From positions 1-64,000 of IMG/VR virus record IMGVR_UViG_3300045988_118310: a stretch of 64,000 bases of DNA; one strand, 5' to 3'. Made by a program: the position numbers and the translations under genes. Position 1 is the stretch's first letter, and every line of letters begins with the position of its first letter. This DNA is from a virus. The notes under the pieces were generated by a model. The model ran no database searches and was not told the origin of the DNA. It saw only the letters and a program-made list of their open reading frames with translations. Shown in pieces: positions 35,734-41,178 of the stretch.

Positions 35734-36159
35734 TTATGAGATTTTCTTATCAAGTTTTCGTAACTCTAACTTACTGGGAAGAAAATTTCTACAGAAGTAT
35801 GCACTTCCAAAAGACACTCCCTCGACAGGGCTGTCTGCGTGTTTAGGGTCCATGAATCCTATTCGAGAATCAAAACACAGCATCTGTACATCATTTTTGA
35901 AGATGTCAAATCGTGTCTTACCCTGAATACTATTTGCAGGAAGTAGTAGAGCAAACGGCTTTTTAAGCTCATAGGCTCTACGCAATACTTCATCCTTCCT
36001 ACTAAAAGGAGGGTTTGAAATCATAATATCCCAATATTCCGGTTCGTATGTAAAGAAATCTTGTCCGTTATCAATGTGGCTATATTCTACTTTATATCCA
36101 GCATTTCTGAACACCTGCACAAAGGCAGACCACTCTTTATCAAACGGACACCAAATCAC
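35734..36159 (-). pseudogene. N-terminally truncated amino-methyltransferase-like fragment (NPPF motif IV)
   Basis: DIMISNPPF but no upstream FxGxG within the ORF; GTG start; G6 homopolymer just upstream. Confidence 0.4.
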
Positions 36160-36276
36160 TGTTTTACTCGACGGGGGGCAAATTCAAGCAATGGAATAAC
36201 CGCGTAAACCGGTGTGTATCGCTCATCGCCTACCGCAGATCGGTCAGCTGTTAAATATCCTTTATTTTCTGGCAAA

Positions 36277-37731
36277 TTATCCTCCTTGCTTTTCTGGAAA
36301 ATGCTTCTTAGTTACTGCAACGCAGAACGGTTCAATTTCAGATCCCCAGATAGCAGTACCATCACCATACGTACTTTCAAAGACAAGCGGAAAGCCACCG
36401 ATTCCATCAAAAAGACTGCCAAGCGTAGGATTCTCACCGATATACGGCTTCATTTTCTGGAAAATCCAATACCACTGAGGCAATGCAATCGAATTGCCGA
36501 GCGCCTTGTAACGAGGAGAATCAGCTGGTTTGTGCTTTTTACCATTCTCATCAACCCACTCGCCAATATCAGTCCATCCATCAGGGAACCCTTGAAGTCG
36601 TTCACACTCGACAGGAGTCAGGCGACGAACAATCCATTGCAGATTCTTCGTTTCCTTCTCTGCAATCAAGTCAGTAGCATCCTTGTAGTCACGAGATTTC
36701 ATCGTACTAGCTTGTTCACTTTCCTTGTATTCACCAATGCGTTGCATTGCAAAGGTTTTCTTTTCAGCAACAAGCGGCATATTATTGCCACCAGTCCCCC
36801 ATTGAGCCGTACAAGCCGGACTTGTGTCGCCCTGTTGAGTGTATCGAGCATCCTGACTGTGACTCTCAAACACCACCGGCGAAATCTTTTGTTTTGAATT
36901 ATGTAAAGAGGTGTTGTCTGCCAAGCAAATTAACGTTTGATCTTGCAATGTAGAAAGCGTTGCGCTCTTCTCGATTTGTACCAGTGCGCCTTTGCCACCA
37001 CCTTCGCATCCTGAACGAATCTTTAAAGTGTAGGCAACAGCATTACGGTCAATAGTGTTTATAGTGAAAGCAGTATCTTCTTTTACACCAGTCCCATTCA
37101 TGTTGGTTTCTCTGTCAATCATGTTTCCGACGATACAAAAGCTTTTTTCTCCCACCACTCGATCATTTCCAACAATGCATTTTTCAGCAATTCTGGCAGC
37201 ACCTTGCCACGTCGGGATGCTCTCGTCAGAATTCCCTGGCACGCCCGTGCGCTCAAATAATATCTTTGCGGCACGTTGTCCTCCAAAATCCATGACAAGC
37301 GCGATTCTTTGACGACGTTGGGGCACTCCCCAGTATTGAGCATCGAAGAGTCTCCATGCCAAAGACCATCCATTACCGGAAATTGCGCCGGATTTAGACC
37401 ATTTTCCACCTTTTTCCGAAGGTTTAGGAATTGTAGCGTCTGCTTCGACGATGTGTGCAAATTCTTCCAAGACACATCGGAAGTCTTCTCCGTTGTTTGA
37501 GGAGAGTGCTCCTCTAACATTTTCCCAGATTGCAAATTTTGGATATTCTCCATTGGTGGTATCCCTCATTTCTTTTATCACACGAATCATTTCCATAAAT
37601 AGACCAGACCGTTCTCCAGCCAAACCTGCCCGCTTACCGGCAATAGAAAGATCTTGGCTAACAAGGTGAACCACCAGTGATACACGAGACAGGTTCAATC
37701 TTAGAACCATCAATCTCGCAAATACTTCCAT
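36277..37731 (-). CDS. DNA cytosine-5 methyltransferase, circularly permuted (motifs V-X followed by I-II), catalytic Cys encoded out of frame upstream
   Basis: ENV, QRRQR, RLTPVECERLQGFPDGW, GNSIALP then LFDGIGG and SEIEP...HFPE at the C-terminus; N-terminus reads ...LVSQDLSIAG lacking PC. Confidence 0.65.
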   Translation of the reverse strand: MEVFARLMVLRLNLSRVSLVVHLVSQDLSIAGKRAGLAGERSGLFMEMIRVIKEMRDTTNGEYPKFAIWENVRGALSSNNGEDFRCVLEEFAHIVEADATIPKPSEKGGKWSKSGAISGNGWSLAWRLFDAQYWGVPQRRQRIALVMDFGGQRAAKILFERTGVPGNSDESIPTWQGAARIAEKCIVGNDRVVGEKSFCIVGNMIDRETNMNGTGVKEDTAFTINTIDRNAVAYTLKIRSGCEGGGKGALVQIEKSATLSTLQDQTLICLADNTSLHNSKQKISPVVFESHSQDARYTQQGDTSPACTAQWGTGGNNMPLVAEKKTFAMQRIGEYKESEQASTMKSRDYKDATDLIAEKETKNLQWIVRRLTPVECERLQGFPDGWTDIGEWVDENGKKHKPADSPRYKALGNSIALPQWYWIFQKMKPYIGENPTLGSLFDGIGGFPLVFESTYGDGTAIWGSEIEPFCVAVTKKHFPEKQGG

Positions 37732-37741
37732 AATGTTTCAC
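37658..37741 (-). pseudogene. out-of-frame 5' segment of the C5-MTase encoding motifs III/IV (IDGSKIEP...ITGGSPC) ending at TAG
   Basis: GTG 7 nt after AAGGAGGTG; +1 frame relative to the main ORF; the ATG of the main ORF lies inside it. Confidence 0.5.
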
Positions 37742-37758
37742 CAAACCACCTCCTTTTC

Positions 37759-37882: not shown

Positions 37883-37963
37883 TGGTGGGACATGTCGGAC
37901 TTGAACCGTGATACATATGCTCAGTTATGAGCTGAGTTCTCTAACCAATTGAGATAATGTCCC
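37883..37963 (-). tRNA. tRNA-Met/Ile2-like (anticodon CAT), CCA encoded; T-stem imperfect
   Basis: acceptor GGGACAT/ATGTCCC, D-stem TCTC/GAGA, anticodon stem CTCAG/CTGAG loop CTCATAA; GGTTCAAGTCC T-arm. Confidence 0.55.
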
Positions 37964-38094
37964 ATAAAAACCAGTTAAATAGCTGCAACTATTCAACTGG
38001 GCACCTTCCTTATAAAACGCTATTGCATCTATATCATATAGACGAGGAAGGAATAACAGCGATGCACATTTCCTATATCTCGCCCCTTTCGGGG

Positions 38095-38152
38095 TGGTAT
38101 CTCGCACAGGCGCGGCCAGATCTGACCGCCAAAGATCCTACCCATACGAGAT
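38095..38152 (-). ncRNA. 57-nt tRNA-minihelix-like element ending in CCA, directly after tRNA-Gly
   Basis: TCTCGTA/TGCGAGA terminal pairing, internal AGATCT palindromes, ends ...TACCA followed by a CCCCGAAAGGGG hairpin. Confidence 0.3.
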
Positions 38153-38227
38153 TGGAGCAGCGAAAGGTAGTCGAAACCTCATCCTCAGCTTGGAAGGCTG
38201 ATGTACTAGCCGTTGTACGACCGCCGC
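38153..38227 (-). tRNA. tRNA-Gly (anticodon TCC), CCA encoded
   Basis: cloverleaf: acceptor GCGGCGG/TCGCTGC (2 GU), D-stem GTAC/GTAC, anticodon loop CTTCCAA, T-arm GAGGT-TTCGACT-ACCTT. Confidence 0.7.
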
Positions 38228-38233
38228 ATGAAA

Positions 38234-38284
38234 ACCCAGCTTACAAAACACTACTGCACCATCACTGGCGAGCTGGGAATAATA
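38234..38284 (-). repeat. R1: conserved ~50-nt inverted-repeat spacer element (CCCAGCT...AGCTGGGAATAAT) upstream of tRNA-Gly
   Basis: shares acccagcttac...cactgc...gagctgggaataat with R2. Confidence 0.4.
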
Positions 38285-38328
38285 GTGGTCAAAGGAGTTC
38301 AACCATGAACAACAACGATTCATGACCG

Positions 38329-38410
38329 TGGTGCGGATAGTGGGCATCGAACCCACACGCCGAAGCACCAGATCCTAAATCTGGCGTGTCTGCCATTCCA
38401 CCATATCCGC
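38329..38410 (-). tRNA. tRNA-Leu (anticodon TAG), long variable arm, CCA encoded
   Basis: acceptor GCGGATA/TATCCGC, anticodon loop TTTAGGA, variable arm TGCTTCGGCGTG, T-arm GTGGG-TTCGATG-CCCAC. Confidence 0.75.
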
Positions 38411-38415
38411 ATAAA

Positions 38416-38486
38416 TTGCGCCAACAGGGGTCGAACCTGTGATGGAGGAGTCAAAGTCCTCTGCCTTACCGCTTGGCGATGGCGCA
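38416..38486 (-). tRNA. tRNA-Gln (anticodon TTG), no encoded CCA
   Basis: acceptor TGCGCCA/TGGCGCA (U1-A72 as in bacterial tRNA-Gln), anticodon stem GAGGA/TCCTC loop CTTTGAC, T-arm ACAGG-TTCGACC-CCTGT. Confidence 0.7.
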
Positions 38487-38495
38487 TCATATACC

Positions 38496-38549
38496 CAGCT
38501 TACTACGCCACACTGCTCCGTTTCCAGAGAGCTGGGAATAATGTGAATG
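38496..38549 (-). repeat. R2: second copy of the inverted-repeat spacer element, upstream of tRNA-Gln
   Basis: tacccagcttac...cactgctcc...gagctgggaataat. Confidence 0.4.
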
Positions 38550-38571
38550 AAAAATTCTACATGCCCTTTCG

Positions 38572-38647
38572 GGCTGGTCCGAGTGACAGGTCATGATCCT
38601 GCGGCCTCATGTTCCCAAAACACGCGCTCTTCCAACTGAGCTACACC
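38572..38647 (-). tRNA. tRNA-Pro (anticodon TGG), CCA encoded, atypical T-loop
   Basis: acceptor CCGGGTG/CACTCGG, D-arm GCTC-AGTTGGAA-GAGC, anticodon loop TTTGGGA, T-loop ATCATGA. Confidence 0.55.
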
Positions 38648-38654
38648 CGGATAT

Positions 38655-38741
38655 AAATGCCACCGAGGAGAGTTGAACTCCTAATCTCTTACGAGCGTTC
38701 CGGTTTAAGCGGAAAGTGTATGCCATTTCCACCACGGTGGC
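38655..38741 (-). tRNA. tRNA-Leu (anticodon TAA), long variable arm, no encoded CCA
   Basis: acceptor GCCACCG/CGGTGGC, anticodon stem TTCCG/CGGAA loop CTTAAAC, T-arm AGGAG-TTCAACT-CTCCT. Confidence 0.7.
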
Positions 38742-38821
38742 ACATCAACACTGTCTGTCCAGCAGTCAACCGTCTTTCCGATTTTGCCAATATTCTAGCA
38801 CTTGCCCATCTGCAAATGGGT

Positions 38822-38900
38822 TGGTAGCCCTACTCAGATTTGAACTGAGAATTTTACAAGGTTTGAGCTTGTTGCGTATGCCTAATTCCGCCATAGGGCC
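38822..38900 (-). tRNA. tRNA of uncertain identity (anticodon CAA, short variable arm, large D-loop), CCA encoded
   Basis: acceptor GGCCCTA/TAGGGCT, anticodon stem ACAAG/CTTGT loop CTCAAAC, T-arm CTCAG-TTCAAAT-CTGAG. Confidence 0.5.
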
Positions 38901-38967: not shown

Positions 38968-41178
38968 TTATTCGTGCCGATTCTCATAGAATTCATTCCG
39001 AAGCTGAATGATGTTCTTTTTGCAGAACGATTCGTGATCGGCATCATTCTGTTGTCTCATCCATCCGTAGAAGTTGTTGTCTTCTGCGGTGAACAATTTT
39101 GAGGTGTGTTCGTAGTATCCACGCTTTTGAACGCTCTGCATAACACTACGCAAGAATTTCCAGTGCTTATAGCAAGGAAGCTTCAGCTTAAACATGAAAT
39201 TGTTGTTATCTCTCAAAACAAAGCCTTCAACGTGTTTAAAGCCATGATGCAGATAGTTCTCGTTCATGACTTCCTCGTACCAAGGATAGAATTCACGCCA
39301 GTTCTCAAAGGTCTTAACCTTCTCCTTAATCTGCAGATGACACTTCTCGGCTACACGCTTCAAATCATCATAATCCATTACACTGAAATTCATATCATTT
39401 GCAATAATATCCAGCAAAACAACGTGCGGTTTCTTATATTCGATGATATGCGCATCATTCACAGGATCAATCACCTCGAAGATGATGGAGCCATTCTCTT
39501 TTGCAAATTCTTTCAGATTCTTACGGTCTTCATCAGAAGTCGTATCCATGAGAATCTTTCGAAACATATCTGCAAAAGGCCCTTCAGGAGTGGATTTACT
39601 TGCAATGAACAGACTATCCTGTTCTGCATCATACGAAATGATACCAAGAAATCCGTTCTCTTTTAGATATGCAGTCACCGGGAACTTCAAAGTGTTCTGT
39701 AGGTTTCCAATTCTCGTTTCATTCCGCTCATCAACCGCAAAGAACTTATCATAGCTTCGAGCTACAATCTTATTCGTCTTTGTGTTAATGAACAATCCCC
39801 TTGCTTTGGTAGAAACCTCATCCCAGTGCTTCTTATAAAATGCTTCACGAGAGAAGTTGAAAGAAGAAATATCTCCGAATCGCTTCTCAAACACATATTT
39901 GCTTTGACGCATCTTACTAACAAGTTCTGCGTTATCGAACTCAGTTTTCAGTTCAACGACAGTTTCAGTCTTTGGCTCCTCTTTTTGGAACACATCGTTC
40001 TTGGTTTCTACACACTTGATTGACTGACCGTGTTCAAGTTCCACGCAACGAAGATATCCACCAAACTCGATTTTTCCTTCGAGGTTGTAGCACTGATGCC
40101 CCATATCAATAGGAACATCCTGCACATTTCGATGTCCAAAGATTTGGAAACATCCGTCAGGCATCTTTTGTTCCCATGACTCTGCGACAGTGAGCATGTC
40201 AGAGTAGCGGCCAACACCCTTTACCATCTGGTCAGTAGACACGAACGGTAGAAATTCAGGCAAATAACTCAAACCACCATGGCTAACGAAGTATCTTTTA
40301 TCATCGTAATCAAAATAGGAGCACTGTCCTACTCTTGAATAGACCTTACGAGCCGTATTATGGTCAATCCCTGCTTTAAAAAGCTGCGGACGAGTGTAGT
40401 TTGTAAATTCCTCACTCTGAACCGGCTCGTCATGACCCCACTTGTTTAGCCACCGTTCATGATTTCCTTCAAGGAGAATTACATTCTTCCGATTATTGTC
40501 TACAACATCACAAAGGAACTTGAACATCTCTACATTTTCAATTCCACGATCCAGATAATCGCCAACAAAAATGTACAGCTCATCGTCCTTCAGGTCTCCA
40601 AGGTACTCTTTCAGGCAACTGTAGCATCCATGCACATCACCGATGATATGAATTTTGCTCCAATTATTAAAATCCTGCGGAACATAGTTCAATTTTTCAA
40701 GGACATTGACATCCGACGAAAGCACAGTCACTCCAGACGGAATTTTTTGTGTTGCGAATCGTGCATACATCTTATCAATGACAGCATCTGGAACTCTCTT
40801 CAGTGGGGCACGGAGCGAATTGCGCCGCTTGCACTCATCAATCGGCAAGCCCGTCATGTCAATGATGTACATTCTGTACCTGTACTGCTTGGCGAGGTTC
40901 TTGTAGCGATTGATTTCGACCGTTTTAGAATTCGTTGCATCGATCACGGTGAACTCACCATGAGACATCCGAACCTCCAACAGCTTAAAGAGCATATCCC
41001 AGACAACATCATCGTTCTGGGGAGAGATTTCCATTGTGCCAGCCGGGGTTTCCTGACCACCCTGGCACATAAGACGAATCGTATCTGCACTAAGCGTATA
41101 CTTTTCCAGATCATGCTCTTTAATATAGGGGGACTTCCCGCATCCGGGTGCTCCACGGAAAAGAAGCAAAGTTCTCAT
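38968..41178 (-). CDS. Pnkp-like polynucleotide kinase - metallophosphatase - ligase (RNA repair enzyme)
   Basis: P-loop GAPGCGKS + VIDATN (kinase); GDVHG, GDYLDRG, GNHE (calcineurin-like phosphatase); KENG, FEVID, EGFVL, FKLK (nucleotidyltransferase ligase motifs I, III, IV, V). Confidence 0.75.
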   Translation of the reverse strand: MRTLLLFRGAPGCGKSPYIKEHDLEKYTLSADTIRLMCQGGQETPAGTMEISPQNDDVVWDMLFKLLEVRMSHGEFTVIDATNSKTVEINRYKNLAKQYRYRMYIIDMTGLPIDECKRRNSLRAPLKRVPDAVIDKMYARFATQKIPSGVTVLSSDVNVLEKLNYVPQDFNNWSKIHIIGDVHGCYSCLKEYLGDLKDDELYIFVGDYLDRGIENVEMFKFLCDVVDNNRKNVILLEGNHERWLNKWGHDEPVQSEEFTNYTRPQLFKAGIDHNTARKVYSRVGQCSYFDYDDKRYFVSHGGLSYLPEFLPFVSTDQMVKGVGRYSDMLTVAESWEQKMPDGCFQIFGHRNVQDVPIDMGHQCYNLEGKIEFGGYLRCVELEHGQSIKCVETKNDVFQKEEPKTETVVELKTEFDNAELVSKMRQSKYVFEKRFGDISSFNFSREAFYKKHWDEVSTKARGLFINTKTNKIVARSYDKFFAVDERNETRIGNLQNTLKFPVTAYLKENGFLGIISYDAEQDSLFIASKSTPEGPFADMFRKILMDTTSDEDRKNLKEFAKENGSIIFEVIDPVNDAHIIEYKKPHVVLLDIIANDMNFSVMDYDDLKRVAEKCHLQIKEKVKTFENWREFYPWYEEVMNENYLHHGFKHVEGFVLRDNNNFMFKLKLPCYKHWKFLRSVMQSVQKRGYYEHTSKLFTAEDNNFYGWMRQQNDADHESFCKKNIIQLRNEFYENRHE

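Follow-up and report, generated by a model that had tools for sequence, protein, structure and literature searches.

A circularly permuted phage cytosine-5 DNA methyltransferase interrupted after its catalytic cysteine by a conserved TGT-TAG-H junction, a putative site of +1 recoding

Introduction

What becomes of a DNA methyltransferase when its catalytic cysteine is followed directly by a stop codon and the remainder of the enzyme continues in another reading frame? The question is raised by a gene in IMG/VR record IMGVR_UViG_3300045988_118310, whose positions 1 to 64,000, a stretch of virus DNA of 64,000 nt, are analysed here and referred to as the window. A first-pass annotation, made from the sequence of the window alone, had described the gene as a circularly permuted cytosine-5 DNA methyltransferase (C5-MTase) with its Pro-Cys split off by a +1 frame break, and had left its status between a frameshift-inactivated gene, an indel or sequencing error of 1-4 nt, and an unusual recoding event. 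The evidence that we bring to bear on all readings of this locus is comparative. Of the three options it favours recoding, through the invariance of the junction and the selection seen on both frames. In our estimate the chance is about even that programmed recoding, by a +1 frameshift at the 'shifty stop' UGU_UAG_H, yields a functional permuted methyltransferase (MTase); an exact bypass of four nucleotides, the second form of recoding considered, adds a small share to this.

Results

The catalytic Pro-Cys and the body of the methyltransferase lie in two frames

The motifs, the split Pro-Cys and the upstream motifs III/IV in the +1 frame, as described in the first-pass annotation, were all found in the sequence. 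A Shine-Dalgarno (SD) sequence, AGGAGGTGG (37746..37754; this and all features below lie on the minus strand), stands 4 nt 5' of a GTG start codon (37741..37739) that opens an upstream open reading frame (ORF) of 27 codons, from GTG to TAG (37658..37741). This ORF encodes VKHYGSICEIDGSKIEPVSCITGGSPC followed by the stop, and comprises motif III and motif IV through the catalytic Cys, whose codon TGT (37663..37661) is the last sense codon before TAG (37660..37658). The Pro-Cys is indeed parted from the remaining enzyme by a +1 frame break ending in TAG (TGT TAG, 37663..37658). One extra base, C (37657), lies between TAG and CAA (Gln, 37656), where the main MTase coding part of 459 codons opens (36277..37656; CAA GAT CTT, that is, QDLSIAGKRAGL...). 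In the +1 frame this part carries the rest of motif IV (QDLSIAG), motif VI (FAIWENV, 37536..37516), motif VIII (QRRQRIALV, 37320..37294), the target-recognition region, motif IX (RRLTPVECERLQGFPDGW, 36627..36574), motif X (GNSIALP, 36498..36478), a linker, motif I (LFDGIGGF, 36414..36391), motif II (SEIEPF, 36342..36325) and the stop codon (36279..36277). The junction DNA reads CCT TGT TAG C CAA GAT; deletion of TAGC gives CCT TGT CAA GAT and restores PCQD, and the putative recoding site UGU_UAG_C occupies 37657..37663.

The N-terminus of the 484-aa ORF, on which the first description was based, did not hold up as protein: the ATG at 37731 and residues 1-25 (MEVFARL...HLVS) are the upstream exon read out of frame. 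The same out-of-frame N-terminus (MEVFARLMVLRL..VVHLVS), without the catalytic Cys, was present in most of the database proteins inspected among P0001-P0120, and the majority consensus of a 29-homologue alignment likewise begins with it. For the identical 484-aa protein of the window, the index of the assembly collection lists 451 blocks, and the observation made in the window exceeds chance. The SD sequence of the window belongs to a strong, extended SD element common to the permuted alleles with the frame shift; among the frame-shifted (TAGN) alleles, GGAGGTGAT or AGGAGGTGG together with GTG was found in 135 of 138.

The enzyme is circularly permuted between motifs II and III

That the gene encodes a circularly permuted C5-MTase is borne out by profile and alignment evidence. 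The Pfam profile PF00145 matched it in four stretches with a score of 103.3 bits (cut-off 22; E = 2e-29), and motifs I (FxGxGG), II, VI (ENV), VIII (QxRxR), IX and X are every one present. The best solved relative is M.HhaI, to which the repaired protein aligns with residues 441-485 on 16-58 (motifs I-II), 4-89 on 58-136 (III-VI), 125-148 on 146-169 (VIII) and 370-419 on 271-308 (IX-X). In a BLASTP comparison with the non-permuted MTase of Streptococcus phage Javan191, residues 1-436 aligned with 49-522 and residues 438-482 with 6-48. The motifs follow each other as III-IV-VI-VIII-target-recognition domain (TRD)-IX-X-I-II and not in the canonical order from I to X, and the permutation breakpoint, ...KRMPE/VKHLGD..., falls between motifs II and III, at Javan191 residues 48/49 and M.HhaI residue 58. 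The C-terminal segment for binding of S-adenosylmethionine (36292..36414; LFDGIGGF, SEIEPF, ...KHFPE), recognised in the alignments to Javan191 and M.HhaI, stands within the same ORF as the other motifs. Intact permuted relatives (P0105/L001, L002, L063, L081 and L082) combine a continuous GSPCQDLS with a C-terminal LFDGIGG...KKHFPED. Judged from these alignments, the permutation is genuine and its II/III breakpoint corresponds to the 'Type B' topology.

By definition, a Type H permutation has its N-terminus in the variable region and motifs IX-X ahead of I-VIII (PMC5944983), an arrangement that the window MTase does not show. The topology with a II/III breakpoint was engineered by Albert et al. 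(2018) in cp62M.MpeI and reported absent among natural C5-MTases (PMC5944983). Under standard decoding the Pro-Cys of the window MTase is confined to the separate 27-codon ORF, and the C5-MTase feature of having it in the same polypeptide as the other motifs is regained only with recoding. An AlphaFold2 model of the intact relative P0105, built on a shallow 29-sequence alignment, had a mean predicted local distance difference test score of 28, too low for the model to be of use. Megablast against GenBank phages returned only a 105-nt match, to Ruminococcus phages, and no close cultured relative.

The TGT-TAG-H junction is invariant amid varying neighbours

The collections were scanned with a degenerate pattern, P-C-[any 4 nt]-Q-D-L-S-I-A-G, in which either Cys codon was allowed. 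Viral contigs gave at least 113 family matches, all those listed being TGT+TAGN (TAGA 82, TAGC 30, TAGT 1). Among species-representative genomes, all six MTase matches, from six metagenome-assembled genomes (MAGs), were TGT-TAGC or TGT-TAGA, and a further 15 chance matches, FliG among them, had assorted 4-mers. Metagenomes contributed at least 120 junction alleles with A (69), C (49) or T (2) as the fourth base among the matches listed. No match to TGC-TAGN, to TAA or TGA replacing TAG, or to a 1-nt insert at the junction was obtained in whole-collection scans. TAGG was absent from the metagenome collection, compared with at least 120 TAGH alleles, and no 3-nt in-frame insert (a PCxQ allele) was found in the viral collection; a search for the TGT-TAGN insert in other C5-MTases (PC-TAGN-QxFSxAG) had no matches. 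TGT-TAG-H does not vary across at least five clades with synonymous divergence (dS) above 1, and the Gly, Gly, Ser, Pro, Gln and Asp codons beside it all vary synonymously. By these counts the insert is evidently a conserved element of exactly 4 nt (TAGN). The junction CCTTGTTAGCCAAG is non-repetitive and of constant length, with no sign of the simple-sequence repeats of phase variation. Because the same TGT-TAG-N junction occurs in independent viral contigs (141 alleles, in more than 140 contigs), metagenome contigs (at least 120) and MAGs (6), a sequencing error or a 1-4 nt indel error, which the first-pass annotation had considered, is excluded.

The IMG/VR relatives fall into two allele classes on the same phage backbone of ~130 kb. 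Class A alleles, to which the window belongs, combine the GTG start with TGT-TAGC; class B alleles are in frame (PCQDLSQAG) and have CTG at the homologous start position. The insert is also carried by a clade of standard motif order (AGC CCC TGT TAGC CAG), in another nucleotide context (...SEIEPFPIRVTEKRLPE[M/V]KHYGD...VITFGSPC), and the sister alleles of that clade are intact. The TAGN element is thus evidently not tied to the permutation.

In class B the CTG stands 8 nt after AGGAGG, at 2914-2916 of L002 and in 50 of 54 intact class B loci, and a conserved ATG located 7 nt upstream of the CTG is not in frame and lies too near the SD sequence. Initiation at CTG is rare in bacteria, and intact alleles are annotated as truncated proteins (MSQAGK...) because gene callers ignore the CTG start. 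Since shifted alleles pair a strong SD sequence and GTG with a stop codon, and their intact sisters use CTG, two arrangements that would each give little enzyme, we infer that low MTase output is favoured by selection.

Selection on both flanks and access to the downstream frame

When the upstream exons of shifted alleles (41 unique ones) were compared, 47% of the codon differences were synonymous in the exon's own frame, compared with 8-9% in the two others, and the median ratio of nonsynonymous to synonymous divergence (dN/dS) was 0.18 at dS 1.27. For the window clade, every member of which has TAGC or TAGT, the synonymous and non-synonymous codon states in the own frame numbered 9/5 upstream and 14/3 downstream of the junction, compared with about 3/12 in the remaining frames. 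In the pair of this clade that has diverged furthest, dN was 0.034 and dS 0.72 upstream, and dN was 0.014 and dS 1.0 downstream. The same two-flank pattern was found in four further clades. These values indicate that both flanks are under purifying selection, each in its own frame. Because the flanks keep this selection and UGU-UAG-(not G) is invariant, with UGU, UAG and the non-G fourth base fixed, simple inactivation of the gene, another of the options first proposed, is unlikely. No intact allele with an upstream exon of the class A type was seen among the relatives examined; there is therefore no support for the idea that the insert spread recently into intact genes that had already diverged.

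The way into the downstream frame is narrow. In the non-permuted clade the open +1 window ahead of the junction spans eight codons without ATG, GTG or TTG, and that of GGCGGC, GGAGGC or GGAGGA alleles also contains none of the three; in alleles of the L086 type, TGA-TAG closes the +1 frame six codons before Gln. Entry would therefore have to come from the upstream frame, within its last few codons and, if the catalytic Pro-Cys is to be retained, after the Cys codon. The arrangement expected of two split genes, a second ORF with its own start and ribosome-binding site, was not found: several alleles are startless, and no SD sequence precedes the GTG at -6 codons.

A +1 shift at UGU_UAG_H as the favoured explanation

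A mechanism may be proposed from these results. Ribosomes would initiate at the strong SD sequence and GTG 37741 and translate the 27 codons to Pro-Cys, where they would meet UAG in a weak context, the next base being A, C or U and never G. The majority would terminate, and a fraction would move to the +1 frame without re-pairing of the peptidyl-tRNA. UGU, unlike UGC, pairs by a weak G:U wobble in the P site, and this would bring the event nearer to +1 shifts of the antizyme/Ty3 type than to that of prfB. UAG is read by release factor 1 only, and a non-G fourth base is reported by Poole et al. (1995) to be a weak context for termination at UAG. The invariance of UGU, UAG and 'not G' would fit slow termination that competes with a change of frame. 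Shifted ribosomes would read on through AGC-CAA-GAT to give ...GGSPC-S-QDLSIAG..., with Arg for Ser in TAGA alleles, and the diagnostic trans-frame peptides of recoding would be ...IEPVSCITGGSPCSQDLSIAGK, which marks the +1 shift, and ...GGSPCQDLSIAGK. The likely effect of the shifty stop would be to hold MTase output low. We infer the ribosome shift, its exact product and its regulatory purpose from the comparison of alleles.

Several observations weigh against such a shift. As already pointed out in the first-pass annotation, a re-pairing slip of the prfB type does not fit the P-site codon. UGU to GUU gives no pairing with the anticodon GCA, and a shift from UGU into the +1 frame would therefore depart from the classical rule for slippage. 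A conserved downstream RNA structure was not found by RNAalifold in 14 diverse junctions (-15 to +97; -3.5 kcal/mol, no covariation), a 4-bp hairpin, CYUG-UUAGN-CARG, is broken in CCG alleles, and most alleles have GGUGGU 6 nt upstream, but those with GGCGGC, TTCGGT or GGAGGA lack it. The +1 shift would also place Ser or Arg directly after the catalytic Cys, and the two residues swap within clades; as the viral collection holds no in-frame PCxQ allele, the activity of a PC(S/R)Q product is doubtful. Further frame changes or splits before motif IX were found in 39 of 96 unique shifted alleles, compared with 3 of 57 intact ones, which would fit relaxed constraint or decay in part of the family; many of these breaks are recurrent, namely a variable-region split with an SD sequence and TTG, and a frame switch at a poly-G tract. 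N-terminal modules have evidently recombined with gene bodies, which could make the junction look older than it is.

Alternative explanations

The explanation that survives best beside the +1 shift, unlikely though we judge it, is that the shifted alleles produce no enzyme. The insert would then be a selected knock-out, or would protect PCQ DNA from a homing endonuclease; it would have been spread by recombination, and the signals of selection would date from before the insertion. Protection from a homing endonuclease was proposed for the insert of T4 gene 60 as well. The additional frame breaks (41% of shifted alleles versus 5% of intact ones) are in line with a missing enzyme, as are the invasion of motif VI by an intein and of motif IX by an HNH ORF in members of the family, the evident shuffling of modules between shifted and intact alleles, and the switching off of neighbouring MTase genes in these phages via homopolymer tracts. 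However, a dead gene would not fix TGT over TGC and TAG over TAA beside saturated synonymous sites, and clades in which every member has the insert still show a dN/dS of about 0.02-0.1 on both flanks. Furthermore, no intact allele with a class A exon was found that could have served as a recombination donor, and the extra breaks are recurrent architectures (the split with SD sequence and TTG, the poly-G switch) rather than random lesions.

We assign a low probability to an exact 4-nt bypass, in which the peptidyl-tRNA-Cys would leave UGU, UAGN would be skipped and decoding would resume at CAR to give GGSPCQDLSIAG, with IEPVSCITGGSPCQDLSIAGK as the junction peptide. Such a hop would account for an insert that is always exactly 4 nt long and whose removal restores the canonical motif, for a fourth base that varies between A, C and U even within clades, as an untranslated base would, and for the failure to find a natural in-frame PCxQ allele in the viral collection; a stop codon right after the take-off codon is also known from T4 gene 60. 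It is opposed by the landing triplet AGN, which mismatches tRNA-Cys and forms at most one pair in TAGA alleles, so that the matched codon typical of bypassing is missing, and by the lack of a conserved take-off hairpin, the 4-bp CYUG/CARG stem being broken in CCG alleles. A further objection is that no hop of 4 nt that lacks a matching landing codon is known to us.

It is quite improbable that the enzyme is split, with the 27-aa peptide and a large subunit (MVHLVSQDLS...), re-initiated by coupling at a GTG six codons before Gln, being assembled in trans. A GTG or TTG at -6 codons is present in 138 of 141 viral alleles, and relatives split in the variable region have an SD sequence and start of their own; C5-MTases tolerate splitting, and natural split forms are known (PMC5944983). 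The start at -6 is nevertheless lacking both from the non-permuted clade and from GGCGGC, GGAGGC and GGAGGA alleles, the GTG at this position has no SD sequence, and coupling leaves the absence of TGC, TAA, TGA and TAGG unexplained. The central beta strand and the catalytic Cys would, moreover, hardly be viable structurally as a free 27-mer.

We consider very unlikely the decoding of the site by a special tRNA, for example one that suppresses UAG or one whose anticodon loop of 8 nt reads UAGN as a quadruplet. The strict specificity for UAG and the phage tRNA cluster directly upstream of the window gene would be in keeping with it, but neither a suppressor tRNA with a CUA anticodon nor any other odd tRNA turned up in the 64-kb window or in the regions flanking 60 such loci, most of these 60 phages show no tRNA genes nearby, and TAG is an ordinary stop in the window. 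An artefact of sequencing or assembly has a negligible probability as the source of the frame break: hundreds of assemblies, made independently in different projects and with different assemblers, contain the identical junction, which lies outside any homopolymer.

Reassignment of TAG was ruled out: read with the standard genetic code, the genes of the window are intact, and TAG is a genuine stop codon in infrequent use, ending 6 of 62 long ORFs. A group I intron or intein remnant, editing of the TadA type and transcriptional slippage were dropped, as the 4-nt non-repetitive sequence fits none of them.

An overlapping ORF across motif VIII

An ORF of 144 aa (37119..37553), in the +1 frame relative to that of the MTase, overlaps the gene. 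Its conserved part, ESRLSWILEDNVPQRYYLSARACQGILTRASRRGKVLPELLKNALLEMIE (37158..37307), lies over motif VIII and the poorly conserved linker after it, and follows the pattern ...SRLSxILE..P.(R/K)Y(Y/F)LS.(K/R)AC.GIL.RA..RGK.LP..L..AL. Annotated C5-MTase genes from phages of Streptococcus, Vibrio, Mycobacterium and Caulobacter contain this peptide too, in the same frame relative to the MTase, and there it is better conserved after ILFE than the main frame. No Pfam or NCBIfam family matched it, PHROGs gave nothing useful, and its database entries are hypothetical proteins of 39-103 aa only. The overlapping ORF is a candidate for a long-lived overlapping gene or an alternative C-terminus.

In the TAGA clade (L088, L122, L113, L138, L141, L147 and others) a poly-G tract, ATCAG(G)nCTGTGACGG with n = 5-9, located at the IRGGCDGGGKGALVQ motif, determines which of the upstream frames is continuous with the downstream half of the gene. 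In at least 15 unique sequences of this clade the frame of the overlapping ORF continues into the TRD and motifs IX and X, and the motif VIII frame ends at CTG TGA C, so that the arrangement consists of two long overlapping ORFs.

Splits, inserted elements and neighbouring genes

Class A genes are split in the variable region in L051, ~640 nt past the junction, and also in L098, L117, L148, L159 and L178. The upstream part ends with TAA; GGAGGG and, after a spacer of 6 nt, a TTG start come next, an arrangement suggestive of an enzyme made in two subunits. Relatives with inserted elements are P0089 (819 aa), P0108 (641 aa) and, near motif IX, L122; the elements are an intein after ENV (motif VI) and an HNH-endonuclease ORF in frame in motif IX (RLQGFPE/.../GWTDIGEW). 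Going by these insertions, the MTase family is evidently a target of homing elements.

Directly downstream of the C5-MTase lies a gene similar to N6-adenine MTases (35734..36275), with an NPPF motif. A C6 tract (36173..36178) splits the window copy into ORFs of 39 and 141 aa, and the gene is in frame with C7 in L008, L021 and L059. In contigs with an identical C5-MTase it occurs either as an intact 180-aa ORF (L254, L259) or in the 141-aa form (L256, L257), a distribution that looks like homopolymer phase variation. Immediately upstream of the C5-MTase are seven tRNA genes (37883..38900; Met/Ile-like CAT, Gly, three Leu, Gln and Pro), preceded by a gene for a 736-aa kinase-phosphatase-RNA ligase similar to T4 Pnkp/Rnl1 (38968..41178). 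The T stem of the 81-nt tRNA(CAT) appears weak by eye, and its counterpart in L117 is a tRNA-Ile(TAT).

Discussion

The closest topological match to the window MTase is the engineered Type B enzyme cp62M.MpeI (PMC5944983), with which it shares an N-terminus placed in the loop that joins motif II to motif III, the order III-IV-...-X-I-II and native ends joined by a short linker. In contrast to that construct, the window family is natural and abundant in phages, and has a frame break. Circular permutation of the ten-motif fold is shared with M.BssHII, M.Alw26I, M2.Eco31I, M.Esp3I and M2.BsaI (Type H) and with plant DRM2; the breakpoint lies in the variable region in the Type H enzymes and after motif V in DRM2, whereas in the window MTase it falls between II and III. 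The Javan191 MTase (QBX15552.1) and similar MTases of Firmicutes phages belong to the same subfamily, with GSPCQD(L/M)SIAGKRAGL, WENV, QRRRRI and RRLTPxECxRLQGFPDGW. The Javan191 enzyme has the same overlapping +1-frame peptide, but its motifs stand in standard order in one continuous frame.

With regard to the frame break, several known systems offer partial parallels. M.AquI is split into alpha and beta subunits, and the beta subunit of M.EcoHK31I is encoded in an alternative frame inside alpha; in both cases the split separates motif VIII from motif IX, and each part is provided with a start of its own. The likeness consists in the use of several frames in one C5-MTase locus and in the variable-region splits of relatives of the window gene, whereas the break in the window lies between Cys and Gln of motif IV and is not followed by a general start codon. 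The +1 shift at UGU_UAG_H would share with those of prfB (CUU_UGA_C) and antizyme (UCC_UGA_U) a 0-frame stop in weak context, a short upstream ORF, a main product in the +1 frame and conservation of the shift site across deep divergence. It would differ from them in the motif, in a P-site tRNA without +1 re-pairing, in the lack of a universal SD-like or pseudoknot stimulator and in its position inside a catalytic motif, with no evident autoregulatory link. In T4 gene 60, likewise, a conserved enzyme gene contains an insert that is not translated, a stop comes directly after the last codon to be decoded, and homing elements visit the gene family; the gap in the window gene, however, is 4 nt and not 50 nt, and there is no matched landing codon or demonstrated take-off structure. 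The literature searched, the Atkins 2016 recoding review and those passages of Antonov 2013 that mention methyltransferases or UAG gave no case of a frameshift in a DNA methyltransferase.

A wider proposal can be made tentatively, although we think it unlikely: UGU-UAG-H may be a new recoding signal, at which a 4-nt skip or a +1 shift without re-pairing would rebuild PCQ, the insert possibly providing protection against homing and the overlapping ORF bringing the number of frames in use to three.

The window family is the first natural case of a permutation with its N-terminus between motifs II and III, which engineers found to be the most active and reported absent from nature. The junction, in which UGU, UAG and 'not G' are fixed amid varying synonymous neighbours, is a candidate for a new bacterial recoding signal. 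There is also a consequence for annotation: abundant MTases of gut phages look like cysteine-less homologues in databases because gene callers assign a false N-terminus (MEVFARL...) to most of the entries inspected and drop the catalytic Cys. Should both recoding and the overlapping ORF prove true, this MTase family would be a natural system that uses all three reading frames. The CTG starts, the homopolymer switches in neighbouring MTases and the shifty stop all suggest that methylation of phage DNA is kept low or switchable, which bears on the restriction conflicts between phages and their hosts in the gut.

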